Source of the DNA: a phage | Direction: 5' to 3' (one strand) | Sequence record: PZ000613.1 | Length of the DNA: 64,000 nucleotides | Part shown: one piece after another, positions 1 to 7,427 of the stretch | Layout: every line of letters starts with the position of its first letter | Position numbering within the stretch: the first letter of the stretch is position 1 | Notes under the pieces: model-generated | Told to the model about the DNA's origin: nothing | What the model saw: the letters and a program-made list of their open reading frames with translations, nothing else | Database searches by the model: none | Made by a program: the position numbers and the translations under genes

Positions 1-1713
1 GCGAGGAGTCTTTATAGCGAGACATGTGCAGCAATGCCGCATACGCGTCCCCCCAGTTAACCCCATTAGCCCCAGCACCTGCATAAATGCCGTTAGTAGT
101 AAAGTCGTTTGCATTTAGGCTGACACCTACTGATATACCTCCCTCATCACCTAATCCTGTTTTTACATCAGTTAGAATCTGTCCAGACGGTCCATTCAAA
201 TAGTAGTGAGCATCGGTGATCGCAGTTCCGCCGCTATTGGTTGCGTTATTGTAAAAATGGATTGATGATTGGTTGGCATCCCCAACCTGCCAATCGGCTC
301 TCATGCTGGCAATGGCGCGGTCTACTCCGTTAATCTGATACTTAGACATAACCTGCCCGCCAGATACATAAGCGTCGGGAGTGGCAGACGCATCACTGTT
401 AATAACAGCCCAAGATGTATTAGCAGCTACGAATCCACCATGAGCACGGATGGTCCACACACCAGTAAATGCGTTAGGACGAACCTCTGCTGTCCCATCT
501 CTGCCGTAAGAGGGGTTTGATAGACTGGCATCTATTCTAAGACCATTCCTATAGTTAAGGCTTGTATTGCCTGTGTTGTCAATTTTTAGGCCCGGAATAA
601 TAACTTCAGCGGGGACGATAGCCCCTTCGCCAGTCTGACCGGCTGTGTTGTATTGAGTGCTGATAGAGACTCCGACACTACCTGTAATATTCGGAGCAGC
701 GTTACTCCTTACAATACCGTTAAGAGAACTATCACCGCCATCCCCACGACCAAATAGTCCGGGAACAGAGCCACTCTGAACACCATTCTTATCAGGAACA
801 CGGAAGGTAGTAGTACCGTTACCTGAAGAGTATTTACCTCTCTGAGCTGTTGAGCTTAGCCATAAAGAATCCTCAATAGGGGAAAGCAGTTGTGCGTAAG
901 CCCACAGGTCAGGGTAGTCTGCTCGGTTAAGAAGCTGACCATCAGCAAACACCTCAAAAGCTGGGATAAAAGCTCGACTATCACGTAAGTGGAAATCACC
1001 AATACCGTAGTTAGAGATACCACTCATGGTAGGACCACCAGAACCACCCCCACTGTTACGTAACTGTCTCATAGTCACAGCATCATAATCACCCACACCA
1101 TCTGCAATTGTTACAGGCTGTTGGAAGGTAACTTTCTGAGTAAACTGTTTGATATCAGAGTTGATTCCTGTACGGTTCACCCCAATAGTACGGCCTTTAG
1201 AATCTTTAACATAAGAACCAATAGCTGCAAATGGCAGATCCTCAATCTCAGGACGAAATCGTTTGGAATAAATTGGATATTTAGTTTCCACACCAGAATC
1301 GTTTTTGTCAACAACTGAAACACGACCAGCAGAGTGAATCTCAACCCCTTGAACAGAAGACTCATAGCTGCCAAGCTTGATTGAGTTCTCTGGAGTGACC
1401 TTAATCATATCTACGGATTCTACACCATTAGCTCCAGCAGAACGGAAAGGGATATTATTATCTACGAAAGGGTCAGCTTTAAACAGAGCACCTTCCATGA
1501 TAGGTTGGATTGAATCTAAAACGTAAGTCTTAGAAGCACCTTCGGTTTTTGTTTGATAAGTAGCTGCCGCATCTGTCTTCTGTAGATATTTACCAGTAAG
1601 ATCGACTGCACCAGCAACCCCGTCGACAGTAGAAACACCAACTACCGCAGCATCTCGGTTAATCACTACGTGTGGCATCATTATGCCAGATTTGGGCATT
1701 AATTCTCTAGACA
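1..1713 (-). CDS. tail fibre / receptor-binding protein paralog, partial (about 570 N-terminal codons in window; 3' end beyond window start)
   Basis: Minus-strand frame open from ATG at 1713-1711 (AGGAGG RBS just upstream) to the window edge; nt ~800-1300 are clearly homologous to nt ~2880-3300 of the 1075-aa fibre (shared FTQKVTFQQPVT, DYDAVT, LLNRADYPDLWAYAQLL, GNGTTTFRVPD motifs, tail-collar-like). Confidence 0.6.
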
Positions 1714-1723
1714 TTAAATCCTC

Positions 1724-1747
1724 CTAAAAGCTCCCCGAAGGGAGCGT
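1724..1747 (-). terminator. hairpin plus T-run between the two fibre genes
   Basis: Minus-strand GCTCCC-TTCG-GGGAGC stem-loop followed by TTTTA, immediately after the stop of the 1075-aa fibre and before the RBS of the next gene. Confidence 0.4.
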
Positions 1748-1753
1748 TGTTAA

Positions 1754-4700
1754 TCATTTAGCAGCTAGCTGCTTTTCCAACTCTTCTACTTTAGCAGACA
1801 AAAGCTTGATAGCAGCAAGGGCATCTAGTAAAAGCGGGTTAGTGTCAAGAGTCATGACTCCACTTTTTTCTGCACTGTGAACATACTGAGGGTCCACCTG
1901 TTCTGCTTGTTGTGCAATAACCCCTCTACGTGGTGATTTCTTCTCATCGTTCTTATAAGTAAAGTTTTTAAACTCAAGAGATTTAATATTACTTAGAGCG
2001 ACATTTAGATCTAAATCATCTCCAATGTCCTTAACGTTTGCGTCAGAGGTTCCAGCATTCTGAAGAGTTGTCCACGGAAGATTGGATTTGAGTTCTTTTG
2101 GGTTGTTGTTCAAGGTGTTAGATCTGATATAAGCCGACCCACTCAGACTTACCCAAAATTGACAGATTCTATTTACAGCATAGGAAGTTTGTATACCCCC
2201 TCCATTAGCAGCTGCCCACGAAGAGTTACCATCCGAGTCGGTTATGAATTGGTTATAGTTAGAATCAGGTAATACTGTACCACCCTGAACCCCAACACCA
2301 TAATCATCTTTCACCAAAACACGACCCCTAGGAGTCTCTATATTACCAGCCTCAGTGAAATCAAAAGTAGTTCCTTTACTTGATGTTTTGTTGTAAACAC
2401 CAATTCTAGCAGAGTAAGAGCTTCCTATCGTCCCAACCATTCGGAACTCGGCTGAACCTTCAGATTCTACTCCTACTTTATACTCAGATACCACATTACC
2501 GCCGGTTACAGGGGTTCCATCAGAAGGGCGAGTGCCGTCGCTATTGATTACTGACCATGTTGTGTTGGCAGCAATGAATGCACCCTTAGCACGAATGACC
2601 CAAACACCTACAAAGTTATCAGGACGGACTCTTGAAGAACGACCATAAGCAGGGTTGTTTATTGATGCGTTAAGGGACAAGTTGCTTGAACGATTACCAC
2701 CTACATCACCTTCTGTGATTTTTGGTGGGTTCTTAGTTTCACCACTTGGTTGTAAGGCTGATTTACTAATAGACCCACCTACATACGCAAAAGCACCACC
2801 CACTGAAACAAAGTCAATAGTGCCTGTTATATTGGGGGCACCATTCTCAAAGACATCGCCGTTAGAGCCACTATTACCACCATCACCTCTGCCATAGAGT
2901 TCATTGATAGAGCCAGACTGAACACCGTTCCTATCAGGAACACGGAAAGTTGTTGTTCCATTACCTGTAGAGTATCTCCCCCTTTTGGATGGAGAGGCCA
3001 ACCAATCTGAATCAGATATCGGTGTTAATAACTGTGCATAAGCCCACAGGTCTGGATAATCAGCACGGTTGAGAAGCTGTCCGTCTGATGTTACATCATT
3101 TGGGTGAATAAAAGCCCGGCTATCCGCTAGTCTGAAATCACCAATGTTGAAATTGGAGATACCATTCATTGTAGGACCACCACCGCCACCACCTTGGTTT
3201 CTTAATTGACGTAAGGTAACGGCATCATAGTCACCAACAGCATCTGCTACAGTAACCGGCTGCTGGAAGGTAACCTTTTGAGTGAAAGTCTTAATATCAG
3301 AGTTCACACCATTAACATCGATACCAGCTGCGCCAACATCAACATTCGTGGGTTTATTATCCTCTGTATAAAATTTATAGTCCCCTCCCGGCTTAGAGAA
3401 GATCGGTGTTTCGGAAGAAGCTACTACAGTTCTAGCTAAGTGATCCCCAAATACAGAAGAATCAGAGCCGCTTCTTGATACCATGTTAACTTGAGTGTCA
3501 TTATCTTTTATTCTGCGTAAAGCTATAGTTTTGTTAAGGACTAAGTTTCCATCCATGATACCACCGGATTTAGCCAAAGCCCCTATGTTTGCAGCTGTTA
3601 TGTTAACGTTTCCTGTGATATCATTAGGGGAGATTCCGTTAACAGTAACAATATAAGGTTTCTGGTCTATTGGTTTACCATCATAAGAAGTATCTCCAGT
3701 TAAGCTAGGAGATCTAATAGCTTCACCACCAGTCCAATCAGGAAGACGGATGTTGATGTAGTTGGTAGAGTCTGCATCAGTCAGCCCATCAGCCAGTTTA
3801 CCCCAAGAATAATACTGCTTAGCGCCTGCTTGCCATTCTGTTTCAGACACAACTGGAAGTTGACCGCTAACCAAAGAAGCACCTAAATCACTAGCCAAAT
3901 CCTTGGACACCAAACGACCGTCAGCAGGTAAGATCCCCGGATAGGAAATAGGGCGAGTTGGGTCATAAGGGAACATTAACAGCTCACCAAGATATAAGGA
4001 TGGGTTACCTGTAGGGATTGTGATATCAATATTGCCACTAGAGTCAGGAATACGAGAGTTAACAGTAACAACCCGAGGTTCAGTTTTACTCAAATCAAGA
4101 ATCTTATCGGCAGCCACTTTGTAGAAAACATACTGAGTGTTTTCCCACACTAAAACAGTTTCTCCTGCCTGACGATTAACAGCATCTGCGTCCGCTTCAG
4201 CTTTAGAGCTGTATGTTTTAATAAAACCATCAACTTTGTTATCAACAACTTCTTTACTATAAGAAGCTACGTTCTCTACATTACTCAGCCCAACAGTGCT
4301 TTTGTCAAGAGTTAAAGAAACCTCACCACTCTCAGCAGGACCGCCGTTTACAGAGATAGAACGAACAGATGGGATAAGGTTTGCAATATTCTCTAAAGAT
4401 GTTTTGTGAACAGTGTTGTCATCTTTATCAACATAGAAACCTACATCACCAAGAACAGGAACGCCAGTTGGTGCGTTATCTAAATCTGTTACTGTACCAT
4501 CTTTACCCGGAGCACCTTGAGGGATACCCAAAGAGATAACACCAGTATTAGGATCAAAATGCCCAGAAGCTTCATTTCCCGGAGGAAGTGTGGTGACGTC
4601 TACTGACATACCTAACAGGATATCCAGTCGTTCCTGAACCTCAATCAACTTCTGGTCCATAAGAGCCAGAGCGTTCTGTGCGTCAGAGACTGCTGCGTTA

Positions 4701-4981
4701 GTTTGAGCAATAAGTTGCATTAAACGAGCATCTTGATCTTTAAAGTCCTGCTTCAAAGCTTCAATGTCTTGCTGCATCAGGACACCCTGTTGATACAGAC
4801 GTTCTACTTCAGCGATCAGATCATCAATTGTACCAAACTTAGACTCAGCTAGTAATGCCCAATATTTAGAATCAGCTGCATATTCTGCTGCCTGCTTGTA
4901 AGCTCCGATAGAGCCTTCTGTAGCACCAAACTGCCCAACGTTATTCACTGCATCAGGTGCTTGGTTATTATAAACGATCAT
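1754..4981 (-). CDS. tail fibre / receptor-binding protein (1075 aa)
   Basis: Long ORF after the capsid genes; Gly-X-Y-like stretch (GIPQGAPGKDG), poly-Gly hinge, tail-collar-like motif (LLNRADYPDLWAY ... TTFRVPDRNG), Ser/Gly/Asn-rich beta-type composition, coiled-coil C-terminus. Confidence 0.7.
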   Translation of the reverse strand: MIVYNNQAPDAVNNVGQFGATEGSIGAYKQAAEYAADSKYWALLAESKFGTIDDLIAEVERLYQQGVLMQQDIEALKQDFKDQDARLMQLIAQTNAAVSDAQNALALMDQKLIEVQERLDILLGMSVDVTTLPPGNEASGHFDPNTGVISLGIPQGAPGKDGTVTDLDNAPTGVPVLGDVGFYVDKDDNTVHKTSLENIANLIPSVRSISVNGGPAESGEVSLTLDKSTVGLSNVENVASYSKEVVDNKVDGFIKTYSSKAEADADAVNRQAGETVLVWENTQYVFYKVAADKILDLSKTEPRVVTVNSRIPDSSGNIDITIPTGNPSLYLGELLMFPYDPTRPISYPGILPADGRLVSKDLASDLGASLVSGQLPVVSETEWQAGAKQYYSWGKLADGLTDADSTNYINIRLPDWTGGEAIRSPSLTGDTSYDGKPIDQKPYIVTVNGISPNDITGNVNITAANIGALAKSGGIMDGNLVLNKTIALRRIKDNDTQVNMVSRSGSDSSVFGDHLARTVVASSETPIFSKPGGDYKFYTEDNKPTNVDVGAAGIDVNGVNSDIKTFTQKVTFQQPVTVADAVGDYDAVTLRQLRNQGGGGGGPTMNGISNFNIGDFRLADSRAFIHPNDVTSDGQLLNRADYPDLWAYAQLLTPISDSDWLASPSKRGRYSTGNGTTTFRVPDRNGVQSGSINELYGRGDGGNSGSNGDVFENGAPNITGTIDFVSVGGAFAYVGGSISKSALQPSGETKNPPKITEGDVGGNRSSNLSLNASINNPAYGRSSRVRPDNFVGVWVIRAKGAFIAANTTWSVINSDGTRPSDGTPVTGGNVVSEYKVGVESEGSAEFRMVGTIGSSYSARIGVYNKTSSKGTTFDFTEAGNIETPRGRVLVKDDYGVGVQGGTVLPDSNYNQFITDSDGNSSWAAANGGGIQTSYAVNRICQFWVSLSGSAYIRSNTLNNNPKELKSNLPWTTLQNAGTSDANVKDIGDDLDLNVALSNIKSLEFKNFTYKNDEKKSPRRGVIAQQAEQVDPQYVHSAEKSGVMTLDTNPLLLDALAAIKLLSAKVEELEKQLAAK

Positions 4982-4990
4982 ATTATCTCC

Positions 4991-5743
4991 TTATACACGA
5001 GAAGTACGAATACCATAAATATCAGGCAAGCTGCTCTGAAGTCGAGTCATGTTATTCGGAATTGCGATAGGTGAACCTGAGTACTCTTGTTTCTTATTCT
5101 GTTCTACCATTTCATCAAGGATAGCTTTTCCTAATGCTGACCATTTCTGAACTCCATTATCATCTTGAACAAACAAGCAAGCATGACGTAGAGTGAAATA
5201 CAGAAGAAGTTCTGGTGCAATAGTAAGAATAGCACTGGTATCTGTATCTTCGTGGAATTCCGGTGGGTCTGCATAATAACTAAGAATCACTGAGTTTTCT
5301 GCTGGGATCAAAGGGCTTCCATCATCAGGATAGTACGGAGTATCTGCTTCAATACTAGGGTAGAAAATGAAACGACTCCCGAAACGAGCAAAGTTAACAG
5401 GTTGGTTATTCCAGTGAGATGGGTTAATTGCTCCATGCTGTCTACGATAGCTAATCTCCTCAGGAGATGTTACTTGGAAGATTGCACCATCTTTGGCTCT
5501 CATCATCCATTGAGCTTCTAAGTAATCAGGAGGAATATAAGCCACCCCATCTTTGATATCTAAATAGACTTCTTTTTCCAGAGGAGGAATACGTAAGTTA
5601 CGATAAATCTCTTTCTCTGCAAAGTTAATAAAGTTTGGAATTTGATTAACAAATTCATCATCGTCCCTATCTGCCCAGAGGGCCACGGCCTTCTTTAGCC
5701 ACCCATAGGTATTGATGGGGTATTGAACATCTGGCATTGCCAT
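4991..5743 (-). CDS. hypothetical virion protein (250 aa)
   Basis: ORF with AAGGAGG RBS, located between capsid and fibre genes; no motif recognised. Confidence 0.4.
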   Translation of the reverse strand: MAMPDVQYPINTYGWLKKAVALWADRDDDEFVNQIPNFINFAEKEIYRNLRIPPLEKEVYLDIKDGVAYIPPDYLEAQWMMRAKDGAIFQVTSPEEISYRRQHGAINPSHWNNQPVNFARFGSRFIFYPSIEADTPYYPDDGSPLIPAENSVILSYYADPPEFHEDTDTSAILTIAPELLLYFTLRHACLFVQDDNGVQKWSALGKAILDEMVEQNKKQEYSGSPIAIPNNMTRLQSSLPDIYGIRTSRV

Positions 5744-5807: not shown

Positions 5808-5838
5808 AAAACGAAAAAACCCCGCCCGAAGGCAGGGT
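5808..5838 (-). terminator. rho-independent terminator after the capsid/Ig genes
   Basis: Minus-strand GC-rich hairpin (CCCTGCC-TTCG-GGCGGGG) followed by TTTTTTCGTTTT; sits directly downstream of the Ig-like ORF stop. Confidence 0.55.
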
Positions 5839-5844
5839 CTAGTT

Positions 5845-6357
5845 TTAAGCAGGTGTTACACCAGTAAAAGTGCATGTTGCATTGATGGACGGGTCAGCTG
5901 TCAAACTTGCTTGAACAGTAACTTCGCCACTTGCAGCAGCATCTAAGGTTAACGCACCAGCGGCGCTTACTGTACCAGCTTCTGTAGGAGTTACAACAAA
6001 CGTGTAATCCGCAGCAGCAGAATTAGTTACAGTAAACATGGTAGTGAAATTAGTGGAGGAACCACCAGTTTTACCCGTAATTGGACCCTTAGCTACAATA
6101 GTAGGAGCAGGAGCAACAATTTCAGAAATGGTTGCTGTACCAGAAACACCTTCTAAAGTTGCAGTAATGGATACATCAGTGGATTGAGACGCACTCGGAG
6201 CAGTATACAAACCCGACTGAGTGATAGAACCACCTCCTGTCACTGACCAAGTAAAGCCAGTTGTTTCGGTAGAACCATCACTTTTCTCCGCGCTTGCAGT
6301 GAACTGCCGAGTAGCCCCTGTCTCTAGACTAGCTAAAGACGCAGGGCTAACAGTCAC
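5845..6357 (-). CDS. Ig-like (Big_2-type) domain ORF, probably expressed as a C-terminal extension of the capsid protein by -1 frameshift
   Basis: Thr/Ser/Gly/Ala-rich beta-strand sequence typical of bacterial Ig-like domains (VTVSPASLASLETGATRQFTA ... ITATLEGVSGTATI); no AUG or RBS of its own (GTG only); frame is -1 relative to the capsid ORF and open across its stop codon. Confidence 0.6.
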   Translation of the reverse strand: MTVSPASLASLETGATRQFTASAEKSDGSTETTGFTWSVTGGGSITQSGLYTAPSASQSTDVSITATLEGVSGTATISEIVAPAPTIVAKGPITGKTGGSSTNFTTMFTVTNSAAADYTFVVTPTEAGTVSAAGALTLDAAASGEVTVQASLTADPSINATCTFTGVTPA

Positions 6358-6368
6358 ACTGTCTACTG

Positions 6369-7427
6369 TTACGCCGCCACCTTTCCCGCAGCAGTGAACA
6401 GAACGCCGGAAGCATACGGGTTGCGGTGACGCAGACCAACTTCCATTTCAATCATCCACTTCTCGTAAGAACCATCTTTCGCCAGTTCAGTACGTTTCGG
6501 AGCACGCAGAACCATCTGGGTCCAGTCAGCGCTACGGAAGAAGTAAACTGCATCGGTAGGCATCCAACGGTTAACGATGATTTTGTAGCTCTGGCCCAGC
6601 GGGTCAGTGATGCTGTTAACTTCGTAGATGAACTGCTTGGTGTTCTCAAAGATACGCTTACGTGAACCCTGAGTATTTTCTTGCAGACCAGCGAAGATCT
6701 TAGCATGAGCCGGGTTAATCATGATGATATCTGCTTCAGAACCAGCGGTATATAGTTGCAGAGTCATATCAAAGATATCAGCTTCGTCGAAACCAATGTT
6801 AGTGGTCGGGTTAGAAGCATTCTGTGCAACTTTAACAGTTACTGCACCAGTATCCGGGTCAGCAGGGCCATTTTTGGTCTTGTCAACAAAACCACCAGAC
6901 AGACCGCCGTGAGCACACAGGAACTGGAAAGCACCAGTCTTACGAGCTGCATGGGTGTCGTTCAGACCAACAACATCGGGATCAGTTGCAGAGTTAGTCA
7001 GGTACTGGTCAGCCAGAACGTCGGTACGAGCCTGACCGGACAGAAGGATCTTCTCGAGGTCACGCTTGATCTCTTTACCTTTCTTCTCCAGCTGATACAT
7101 CAGTTCACGACCACGACCATAGTTAGCGGTGGTGTTAGCAGTATCAGAAACACGAACAACCTTACGCAGAATCTGAGTAACGTTAGATTTGATAACAGTC
7201 GGTTTCATTTCGCCGTCTTCAGCACGAGAGCCTTCGACGTGTGCGTTATTAGCGTCAACGCTTGCCAATGCATCGGTCTGCCAGCTAAAGATAGTCTGGT
7301 TGATAGACTCTTTACCGGTCATAGATACGAACGGGGTATCCTGAGGGGACAGAACAGAAATCCAGTTAGCAAAAGAAAGTTTTTTACCATTCTGGTCATA
7401 CGATACAAATAAAGTTGGATTAGCCAT
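6369..7427 (-). CDS. major capsid protein (352 aa)
   Basis: Position between scaffold and Ig-like extension, size, strong RBS, followed by terminator; assignment by gene order and composition, not by a diagnostic motif. Confidence 0.6.
   Translation of the reverse strand: MANPTLFVSYDQNGKKLSFANWISVLSPQDTPFVSMTGKESINQTIFSWQTDALASVDANNAHVEGSRAEDGEMKPTVIKSNVTQILRKVVRVSDTANTTANYGRGRELMYQLEKKGKEIKRDLEKILLSGQARTDVLADQYLTNSATDPDVVGLNDTHAARKTGAFQFLCAHGGLSGGFVDKTKNGPADPDTGAVTVKVAQNASNPTTNIGFDEADIFDMTLQLYTAGSEADIIMINPAHAKIFAGLQENTQGSRKRIFENTKQFIYEVNSITDPLGQSYKIIVNRWMPTDAVYFFRSADWTQMVLRAPKRTELAKDGSYEKWMIEMEVGLRHRNPYASGVLFTAAGKVAA
6381..6387 (-). promoter_or_regulatory. -1 programmed ribosomal frameshift slippery heptamer G GGA AAG
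   Basis: Minus-strand GGGAAAG in X XXY YYZ register with the capsid frame, 4 codons before the capsid stop; the -1 frame continues without stop into the Ig-like ORF. Confidence 0.6.

Follow-up and report, generated by a model that had tools for sequence, protein, structure and literature searches.

We report the analysis of two adjacent tail fibre genes, here termed F1 and F2, which lie at the left end of a stretch of phage DNA of 64,000 nucleotides (sequence record PZ000613.1; the whole of this stretch is referred to below as the window). The region is placed in Kuravirus (Gordonclarkvirinae) by megablast, positions 1-5000 being matched best by Escherichia phage SDYTW1-F1-2-2_3 (90% identity) and then by LAMP, and the replication region, at 20000-44000, being ~94% identical to SU10 and Paul. 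The genes at this end of the window all lie on the minus strand, with the adaptor gene directly upstream of F1 and with F2 downstream, an order that is kept in 11 Gordonclarkvirinae loci (mostly Kuravirus). A first-pass annotation of the same sequence had described the partial gene, F2, as the upstream one; in the direction of transcription it follows F1. F2 starts at the ATG at position 1714, preceded by the Shine-Dalgarno sequence AGGAGG (1725-1720), and its frame is still open at position 1 of the window. Its orthologues of 711-717 amino acids (717 in SDYTW1, 711 in LAMP and 714 in L014, a metagenome contig) end in a chaperone of the Peptidase_S74 (S74) type. The closest published genome is that of SDYTW1-F1-2-2_3 (GenBank OR296290), in which the fibre genes, encoding 1066 and 717 amino acids (locus L001, 5564-10957), are intact but unannotated.

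F1 and F2 are related over most of the length of F2. At the DNA level, positions 681-1162 and 2823-3304 are 70.9% identical over 485 nucleotides (blastn, E = 1.6e-59) and form a direct repeat with a spacing of 2142 nucleotides (repeat search); the first-pass annotation had rightly noticed this homology, but had placed the F2 copy at about 800-1300. The pairwise alignment of the two proteins that it had suggested gives 48% identity over 426 amino acids (BLASTP, E = 6e-112), and every motif that it quoted is found in both proteins at matching positions. Nor is the similarity a product of low-complexity sequence, of which the shared region contains only a run of six glycine residues. Two further statements have to be amended: the module lies ~190 residues into F2, not ~140, and the relationship is not that of a shared collar module between proteins that differ elsewhere. 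Residues 475-1075 of F1 align with residues 72-713 of a full-length F2 orthologue (hhalign: 592 columns, 40% identity, E = 9e-142, probability 100%), and therefore F1 consists of a specific N-terminal half joined to a copy of nearly all of F2. The paralogous part covers ~90% of F2, that is, all but its first ~70 residues, and the N-termini of the two proteins are unrelated. Since the homology extends past the collar, the distal parts are to be regarded as homologous but diverged. An assembly artefact or a collapsed repeat was considered as the source of the duplication and rejected, because identity between the copies reaches only 71% and because independent genomes, as well as metagenome contigs, show the same arrangement.

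The anatomy of the shared region, as derived from the pairwise alignment of F1 and F2 together with a comparison with 12 phage loci, is given in Table 1 with the coordinates of the other features of the locus. The name of the module deserves a comment. The gathering cut-off of the Pfam Collar family (PF07484) is 24 bits; the F2 module scores 23.8 bits (E = 4.5e-5) and the F1 module 17.2 bits, both under that value, 12 of 16 homologues match under the cut-off and DT57C LtfA reaches 25 bits. The motif is collar-like and the label 'tail collar' given to it in the first-pass annotation is reasonable, but borderline by Pfam. NCBIfam gave no match for either F1 or F2.

Table 1. Genes, domains and shared motifs of the fibre locus and its neighbours, in window coordinates
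Feature	Residues	Window position	Strand	Basis or remark
Major capsid gene		6369-7427	minus	
Immunoglobulin-like (Ig-like) open reading frame		5845-6357	minus	
Adaptor (gatekeeper) gene, SU10 gp11-like	250 in total	4991-5743	minus	Pfam SU10_adaptor, E = 3.7e-29, 103 bits
F1, probable proximal subunit of the long tail fibre	1075 in total	1754-4981	minus	Open reading frame; phrog_10305 'tail fiber protein'; PDB 7z47_D, 8hqz_d
Spacer between F1 and F2, 39 nucleotides		1715-1753	minus	
F2, probable distal/branch subunit of the long tail fibre	571 of ~715 codons in the window	1-1714	minus	phrog_6921
F1 adaptor-binding N-terminus (by homology)	F1 1-90	4712-4981	minus	SU10 gp12 alignment; PMC9509320
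F1 putative docking platform for F2	F1 212-477	3551-4348	minus	Common to all Kuravirus F1 and T5-like LtfA
F1 part paralogous to F2 (~72 to end)	F1 475-1075	1757-3559	minus	hhalign
F1 conserved neck and start of collar domain (repeat copy in F1)	F1 556-700	2882-3316	minus	~76% amino acid identity F1/F2
F1 hypervariable cassette in the gp12-like receptor-binding domain	F1 701-789	2615-2881	minus	No detectable DNA similarity even to the closest phage genome
F1 strand block, then variable distal domain (T5-like tip)	F1 790-979	2045-2614	minus	
F1 conserved strand block	F1 790-816	2534-2614	minus	VRPxxFxGVWxIRAxGxFxAANTxWxVINSD
F1 variable distal domain	F1 817-979			
F1 intramolecular chaperone (Peptidase_S74)	F1 980-1075	1757-2044	minus	PF13884
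F2 docking peptide, common to T5-like LtfB	F2 1-52	1559-1714	minus	tblastn; function by homology
F2 conserved neck and start of collar domain (repeat copy in F2)	F2 181-345	680-1174	minus	~76% amino acid identity F1/F2
F2 hypervariable cassette	F2 346-415	470-679	minus	No detectable DNA similarity even to the closest phage genome
F2 strand block, then start of variable distal domain	F2 416-571	2-469	minus	
F2 conserved strand block	F2 416-442	389-469	minus	
F2 variable distal domain	F2 443 to window edge			
F2 S74 chaperone		beyond the window		
FTQKVTFQQPVT motif	F1 566-577	3286-3251		
FTQKVTFQQPVT motif	F2 191-202	1144-1109		
DYDAVT motif	F1 584-589			
DYDAVT motif	F2 209-214			
Glycine hinge	F1 597-602	3176-3193		GGGGGG
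Glycine hinge	F2 222-227			GGGSGG
LLNRADYPDLWAYAQLL motif	F1 636-652			
LLNRADYPDLWAYAQLL motif	F2 261-277			
GNGTTTFRVPD motif	F1 673-683	2965-2933		
GNGTTTFRVPD motif	F2 298-308	823-791		

The N-terminal half of F1 is closely similar to that of a fibre protein for which structural data exist. Residues 1-477 match residues 1-476 of SU10 gp12 (PDB 7Z47 chain D; E = 4e-241, ~79% identity by BLASTP), with hardly any difference over the first ~100 residues. The long tail fibre of SU10 has gp12 as its proximal protein, the first 90 residues of which bind the adaptor ring, the docking site of that fibre, and gp13 as its distal protein; a separate protein of 267 amino acids forms the short fibres (PMC9509320). 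The N-terminal part of gp12 that was resolved by cryo-electron microscopy in the same study is the counterpart of residues 1-90 of F1.

From residue 212 onwards F1 is also collinear with a fibre protein of T5-like phages. F1 212-1073 aligns with DT57C LtfA (PDB 8HQZ chain d; E = 2.6e-152), with F1 212-477 corresponding to LtfA 199-~470, and F1 likewise matches residues 223-863 of the LtfA of DT571/2. The similarity of LtfA 223-471 to phiEco32 gp14, and that of LtfB 1-45 to gp15, was already reported by Golomidova et al. 2016 (PMC4728585), who proposed LtfA 223-471 as the attachment site of LtfB, found by genetics that LtfB reaches the virion only via LtfA and put forward a branched fibre with two receptor-binding heads. 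We base the location of a putative corresponding docking site in F1 on co-conservation, namely that the N-terminal part of F2 is conserved in all Kuraviruses whatever the C-terminus of their F1, that residues 1-~475 are the only part of F1 common to all Kuravirus and that residues 212-477 are the only part shared with LtfA; this is, in addition, the most conserved stretch of F1, with a column identity of 0.85-0.95 among 23 F1-type proteins. It contains, at residues ~340-470 (3572-3964; ADGRLV...IRLPDW), an older, degenerate collar-like domain, which was matched weakly, though repeatedly, by the collar motif of the heads. We also observed that the motif VTVN(S/G)xxPDxxGN(I/V)xIT occurs twice in F1 (3638-3660 and 4058-4080; residues ~303-325 and ~443-465), flanking this older domain, and that the docking peptide of F2 holds a related string, VSTVDGVAGAVDLT. 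The repeat and the string may bear on the attachment of F2 to F1.

F2 is the orthologue of SU10 gp13 and phiEco32 gp15. Its residues 1-45 are 75.6% identical to the N-terminus of DT571/2 LtfB (tblastn, E = 1e-12), and ~150 T5-like records match F2 only in its N-terminal part, up to residue 45, 52 or 72. Residues 1-187 are 82-99.5% conserved across all Kuraviruses, whichever C-terminus F1 has in them (PF25670, Gly_rich_2 or S74). Over 481 residues F2 is 70% identical to EP335 gp13, a protein for which O-antigen binding is proven, which binds O157 and O26 cells and which cuts off its C-terminal chaperone after Ser621 (PMC8217332); the partial gene thus belongs to the EP335 gp13 family and does not encode a tail-tube or baseplate protein. 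The presence of complete receptor-binding-type regions in both F1 and F2, and the GenBank names 'tail fiber (x2)' or 'RBP1/RBP2' for such pairs, would be in keeping with two independent fibres, each attaching separately to the virion as alternative receptor-binding proteins, which is the model implied by the first-pass annotation. We regard such an arrangement as highly improbable: nothing in F2 resembles the N-terminus by which F1 binds the adaptor, the six long-fibre sites of the adaptor in the SU10 map are occupied by gp12, with separate short fibres of gp16 on the nozzle, and the N-terminus of F2 matches that of LtfB, whose incorporation depends on LtfA. The description of F1 and F2 in the first-pass annotation as two receptor-binding proteins is correct in that the genes are paralogous tail fibre genes, with a proven binder in the family of F2, but their products are most likely subunits of a single fibre.

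The C-terminal half of F1 carries the features of a complete fibre head. Peptidase_S74 (PF13884) is matched at residues 979-1034 with 40.3 bits (cut-off 22), and self-cleavage is predicted at GTS/D (residues 977-980, where '/' is the cutting site), after Ser979. Ser979 and Lys984 (F1 numbering; S430/K435 in the alignment) are invariant in 16 of 16 homologues, all of which match Peptidase_S74, and the chaperone gives profile matches to the intramolecular chaperone structures 7dc3, 6f45 and 3gud and Foldseek matches to 7dc3 and 3gw6. The head as a whole is 53% identical to EP335 gp13. Across the 23 F1-type proteins the scaffold is conserved, the column identity falls to 0.18-0.43 in the cassette (residues 701-775) and the distal domain is hypervariable, a combination characteristic of a functional receptor-binding protein. 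A head of this kind is found in a minority of Kuravirus, namely, among the loci read, in the window phage, SDYTW1, LAMP and PAS59, and in 31 of the best 120 protein clusters from a large protein database. The C-termini of Kuravirus F1 proteins are otherwise of unrelated types: PF25670 (in SU10 and in ~70 of the best 120 protein clusters), Gly_rich_2 (in O18-011), an unassigned form of 1150 amino acids (in Paul) and shorter S74 forms, in addition to the LtfA-like form.

We propose, with a probability of about three in four, that F1 and F2 are two subunits of one branched lateral (long) tail fibre of Kuravirus, and not separate fibres. Trimers of F1 would attach to the adaptor ring via residues 1-90, and residues ~212-477 would form a platform on which F2 docks through its N-terminal ~45-50 residues. 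Past this platform F1 would continue as a near-whole copy of F2, comprising the glycine-hinge neck, a gp12-like collar domain with its cassette, a distal domain and the S74 chaperone, which is predicted to cut itself off. Because F1 would carry F2 as well as an F2-like head of its own, each fibre would present two receptor-binding heads that differ from each other. DT57C LtfA/LtfB and EP335 gp13 suggest by analogy that these heads most likely recognise two different types of O-antigen, so as to widen host recognition or make it more secure, and their binding would precede the deployment of the short fibres and the nozzle. The conserved neck of ~70 residues, which is common to F1, F2 and many other phages, would act as a homology arm for the exchange of heads between phages. 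The analysis itself shows the homologies, the order of the domains, the breakpoints of the mosaic and the profile of conservation; both the physical docking of F2 on F1 and the binding of a receptor by the F1 head are steps that we infer.

Several points weigh against the branched fibre. No structure or experiment in any Kuravirus has F2 bound to F1, and cryo-electron microscopy of a branched phiEco32 fibre exists as a personal communication only, cited in PMC4728585. The gp12-like fold of the heads was not confirmed by fold searches with single-chain models, which returned only weak chaperone and fibre-tip matches. The AlphaFold2 single-chain model of F1 541-1075 (36-sequence alignment) has a mean pLDDT of 55 and a pTM of 0.24 and is confident only in the chaperone, the core of the collar and a portion of the distal domain; that of the docking region, F1 200-480 (44 sequences), has a mean pLDDT of 52, too low for use in a fold search. 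A profile of 16 head regions, searched against PDB sequences, found LtfA and chaperone structures only and no gp12. With the models poor and the fold matches weak, the gp12-like fold is therefore proposed by homology to proteins described in published work. The SU10 fibre, moreover, was described as a proximal and a distal segment with one elbow, not as branched (PMC9509320), and EP335 gp12, the orthologue of F1, showed no cell binding, its fusion to green fluorescent protein binding none of the strains tested (PMC8217332).

The last two points would suit a linear fibre of two segments in which only F2 binds the receptor and the F2-like C-terminus of F1 has merely been left over from a duplication, in a structural or vestigial role. 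We consider this unlikely. The F1 head retains an intact S74 domain with the invariant catalytic Ser/Lys pair, which we count in favour of a functional head, and the combination of a conserved scaffold, a hypervariable cassette and mosaic replacement below the level of the gene is typical of heads that are selected for host range. The collinear LtfA heads of DT57C and DT571/2, furthermore, determine O22/O87 specificity (PMC4728585). As to EP335 gp12, its C-terminus is likely to differ from that of the window F1: it is 91% identical to the F1 of EcoN5 (PMC8217332), which ends like the PF25670-type F1 of SU10 and has only residues 1-477 in common with the window F1.

The mosaic structure of the two genes shows where their heads have been exchanged. 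The identity of F1 to its relatives switches at ~3110-3140 (residue ~625), just before the DGQLL collar motif, and that of F2 at ~950-980 (residue ~250), again just before DGQLL, so that the two breakpoints are homologous. In two metagenome contigs F1 is 97% identical to that of the window, and F2 is nearly identical up to residue ~255 and unrelated past it. The distal heads of F1 and F2 are swapped at these breakpoints with the equivalent slots of other phages. The first-pass annotation had suggested a shuffling of modules between the two proteins; recombinational exchange of the distal parts is indeed visible, but the partners are other phages and not the two paralogs.

Ongoing shuffling or gene conversion between F1 and F2 within one genome would nonetheless have a substrate in a direct repeat of this length and identity. 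Fusions of LtfA and LtfB arise spontaneously in T5-like phages, and the LtfA and LtfB modules of DT571/2 pair together and not with their Kuravirus counterparts, which concerted evolution could cause. For Kuravirus we judge this process to be very unlikely, as exchange between F1 and F2 within one genome was not seen in trees, exact DNA matches or cassette searches. The F1 modules of Kuravirus cluster in a separate clade (99% bootstrap) and share 70-77% DNA identity among themselves, as against 64-70% to any Kuravirus F2 module, including that of the same genome. The longest exact DNA match between F1 and F2 is 16 nucleotides in the window and 14-17 nucleotides across four Kuravirus genomes (26 nucleotides in DT571/2), and neither cassette has a close copy in the slot of the other paralog in another phage. 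On the F1 clade and the short exact matches, recent gene conversion between the Kuravirus paralogs was rejected. The LtfA and LtfB heads of T5-like phages, for their part, group together (99%), apart from Kuravirus F1 and F2, and the paralog pairs therefore either arose independently in each phage group or were homogenised within each.

The cassettes of the two heads have different relatives. That of F1 has no DNA match even in SDYTW1, although SDYTW1 is 88-91% identical to the window where the neighbouring parts of the fibre locus align, and no relative above 46% identity was found by tblastn among 50,697 phage genome records. It is present in the ENA metagenome contigs L013 and L014, where ~2650-3100 of the window is 99-100% identical. 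We advance tentatively, and under a single joint estimate that falls somewhat short of even odds, that the F1 cassette (residues ~701-789) may encode an undescribed receptor specificity, and that the Kuravirus F1 head may be a copy of the phage's own F2, minus the docking peptide, placed on the F1 platform independently of T5-like LtfA/LtfB. Were such independent copying true, the same two-part scaffold would have given rise to dual-headed branched fibres on more than one occasion. The F2 cassette has its nearest relatives in Wifcevirus myoviruses and in Kuravirus DE5; it is 75-78% identical to those of ECO71P1, RCIP0363 and Ro157lw (Wifcevirus-like myoviruses) and 72.6% identical to that of Kuravirus DE5, and residues 200-461 of F2 are 68% identical to the fibre of Ro157lw, a Wifcevirus isolated on Shiga toxin-producing Escherichia coli O157. 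The likeness to Wifcevirus is a clear case of exchange across phage morphotypes. As a pointer to O157 specificity, the resemblance to cassettes of Wifcevirus phages that infect O157 is a weak lead only, because EP335 gp13, an O157 binder, has a different cassette.

Some features of the surrounding sequence were also recorded. The spacer between F1 and F2 contains, ahead of the Shine-Dalgarno sequence of F2, a hairpin GCUCCC-UUCG-GGGAGC (1745-1730, minus strand) of six pairs with a UUCG loop, followed by UUUU, which could serve in transcript attenuation or stabilisation; as a terminator it was rejected, since the hairpin is present but shuffled sequence folds just as well (z = -0.78). Between the Ig-like open reading frame and the adaptor gene, at 5817-5840 (minus strand), lies a strong terminator-like hairpin of ten pairs, six of them G-C, with a T-run, and a terminator is annotated at the equivalent place in SU10 and Paul. 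The capsid gene ends in ...GCG GGA AAG GTG GCG GCG TAA and contains the slippery heptamer G_GGA_AAG at 6381-6387 (minus strand), from which a -1 shift leads into the Ig-like open reading frame and would yield a capsid-Ig fusion; this frameshift corresponds to the known two-isoform capsid of Kuravirus, which has been described for YF01 and is annotated in Paul. At ~13.8 kb (offset from the SU10 alignment) the window crosses the point where the SU10 genome has its ends, and the source assembly is therefore permuted with respect to that of SU10. Past the left edge of the window, and so outside it, are the holin, lysin, short-fibre, nozzle and needle genes.

The analysis has some practical bearing. 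In annotation, F1 is best named the proximal and F2 the distal subunit of a single long tail fibre that has two receptor-binding heads, and the pair should not be listed as two tail fibres or tailspikes. For engineering, the natural boundary of exchange lies just before DGQLL, and the conserved neck upstream of this boundary could be used as the homology arm for head swaps. In the prediction of host range, a Kuravirus with an F1 of the window type probably has one more determinant of specificity than phages of the SU10 type.

Comparison with known systems places the window pair among several described arrangements. SU10 gp12/gp13 and phiEco32 gp14/gp15 (Siborova et al. 2022, PMC9509320) occupy the same position after the adaptor gene as F1/F2. 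Unlike the window protein, the F1 proteins of SU10 and phiEco32 (786 and 880 amino acids) end in PF25670 'Phage_tail_C_2' and have neither an F2-like head nor S74, and therefore F1 and F2 are not paralogs in those phages. The same order of domains as in the window heads is seen in EP335 gp13 (Witte et al. 2021, PMC8217332) and in the 'T-shaped tail fibres' of the BASEL collection (Humolli et al. 2025, PMC11990801). In the latter work the distal subunit of Gordonclarkvirinae was described as having a gp12-like receptor-binding domain, a T5-like distal domain and an intramolecular chaperone, and the heads of T-shaped fibres were found to be exchanged among podo-, sipho- and myoviruses (Gordonclarkvirinae, Wifcevirus and Tequintavirus). 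The EP335 and BASEL papers place a head only on the distal subunit of Gordonclarkvirinae, whereas the window phage, LAMP, PAS59 and SDYTW1 have a second head on the proximal subunit. LAMP gp14/gp15, RBP1/RBP2 of vB_EcoP_PAS59 and the SDYTW1-F1-2-2_3 pair share the F1 type of the window (1066-1073 amino acids, 78-88% identical) and the same two-gene arrangement, and differ from it in the hypervariable cassettes and in parts of the distal domains.

The closest parallel outside Kuravirus is with the branched, L-shaped LtfA/LtfB fibres of DT57C and DT571/2 (PMC4728585; Ayala et al. 2023, PMC10713586, PDB 8HQZ). There, as in the window, the fibre is encoded by two adjacent genes; LtfA, of ~1075 amino acids, is collinear with F1 from residue ~212 through the docking region, neck, collar domain, distal domain and S74, the first 45 residues of LtfB match F2, and the receptor-binding heads of LtfA and LtfB are themselves paralogs. 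F1 differs from LtfA in that it begins with a Kuravirus adaptor-binding domain of ~210 residues in place of the T5 N-terminus that binds LtfC, and it lacks the 19-residue tandem repeats of LtfA. The heads of F1 and LtfA are not nearest relatives in trees, where the paralogs group by phage lineage. As probable subunits of the branched-fibre type known from phiEco32/SU10 and DT57C, F1 and F2 are an ordinary new example of that type and not a new kind of system, and the current view of how branched fibres work is unchanged by them.

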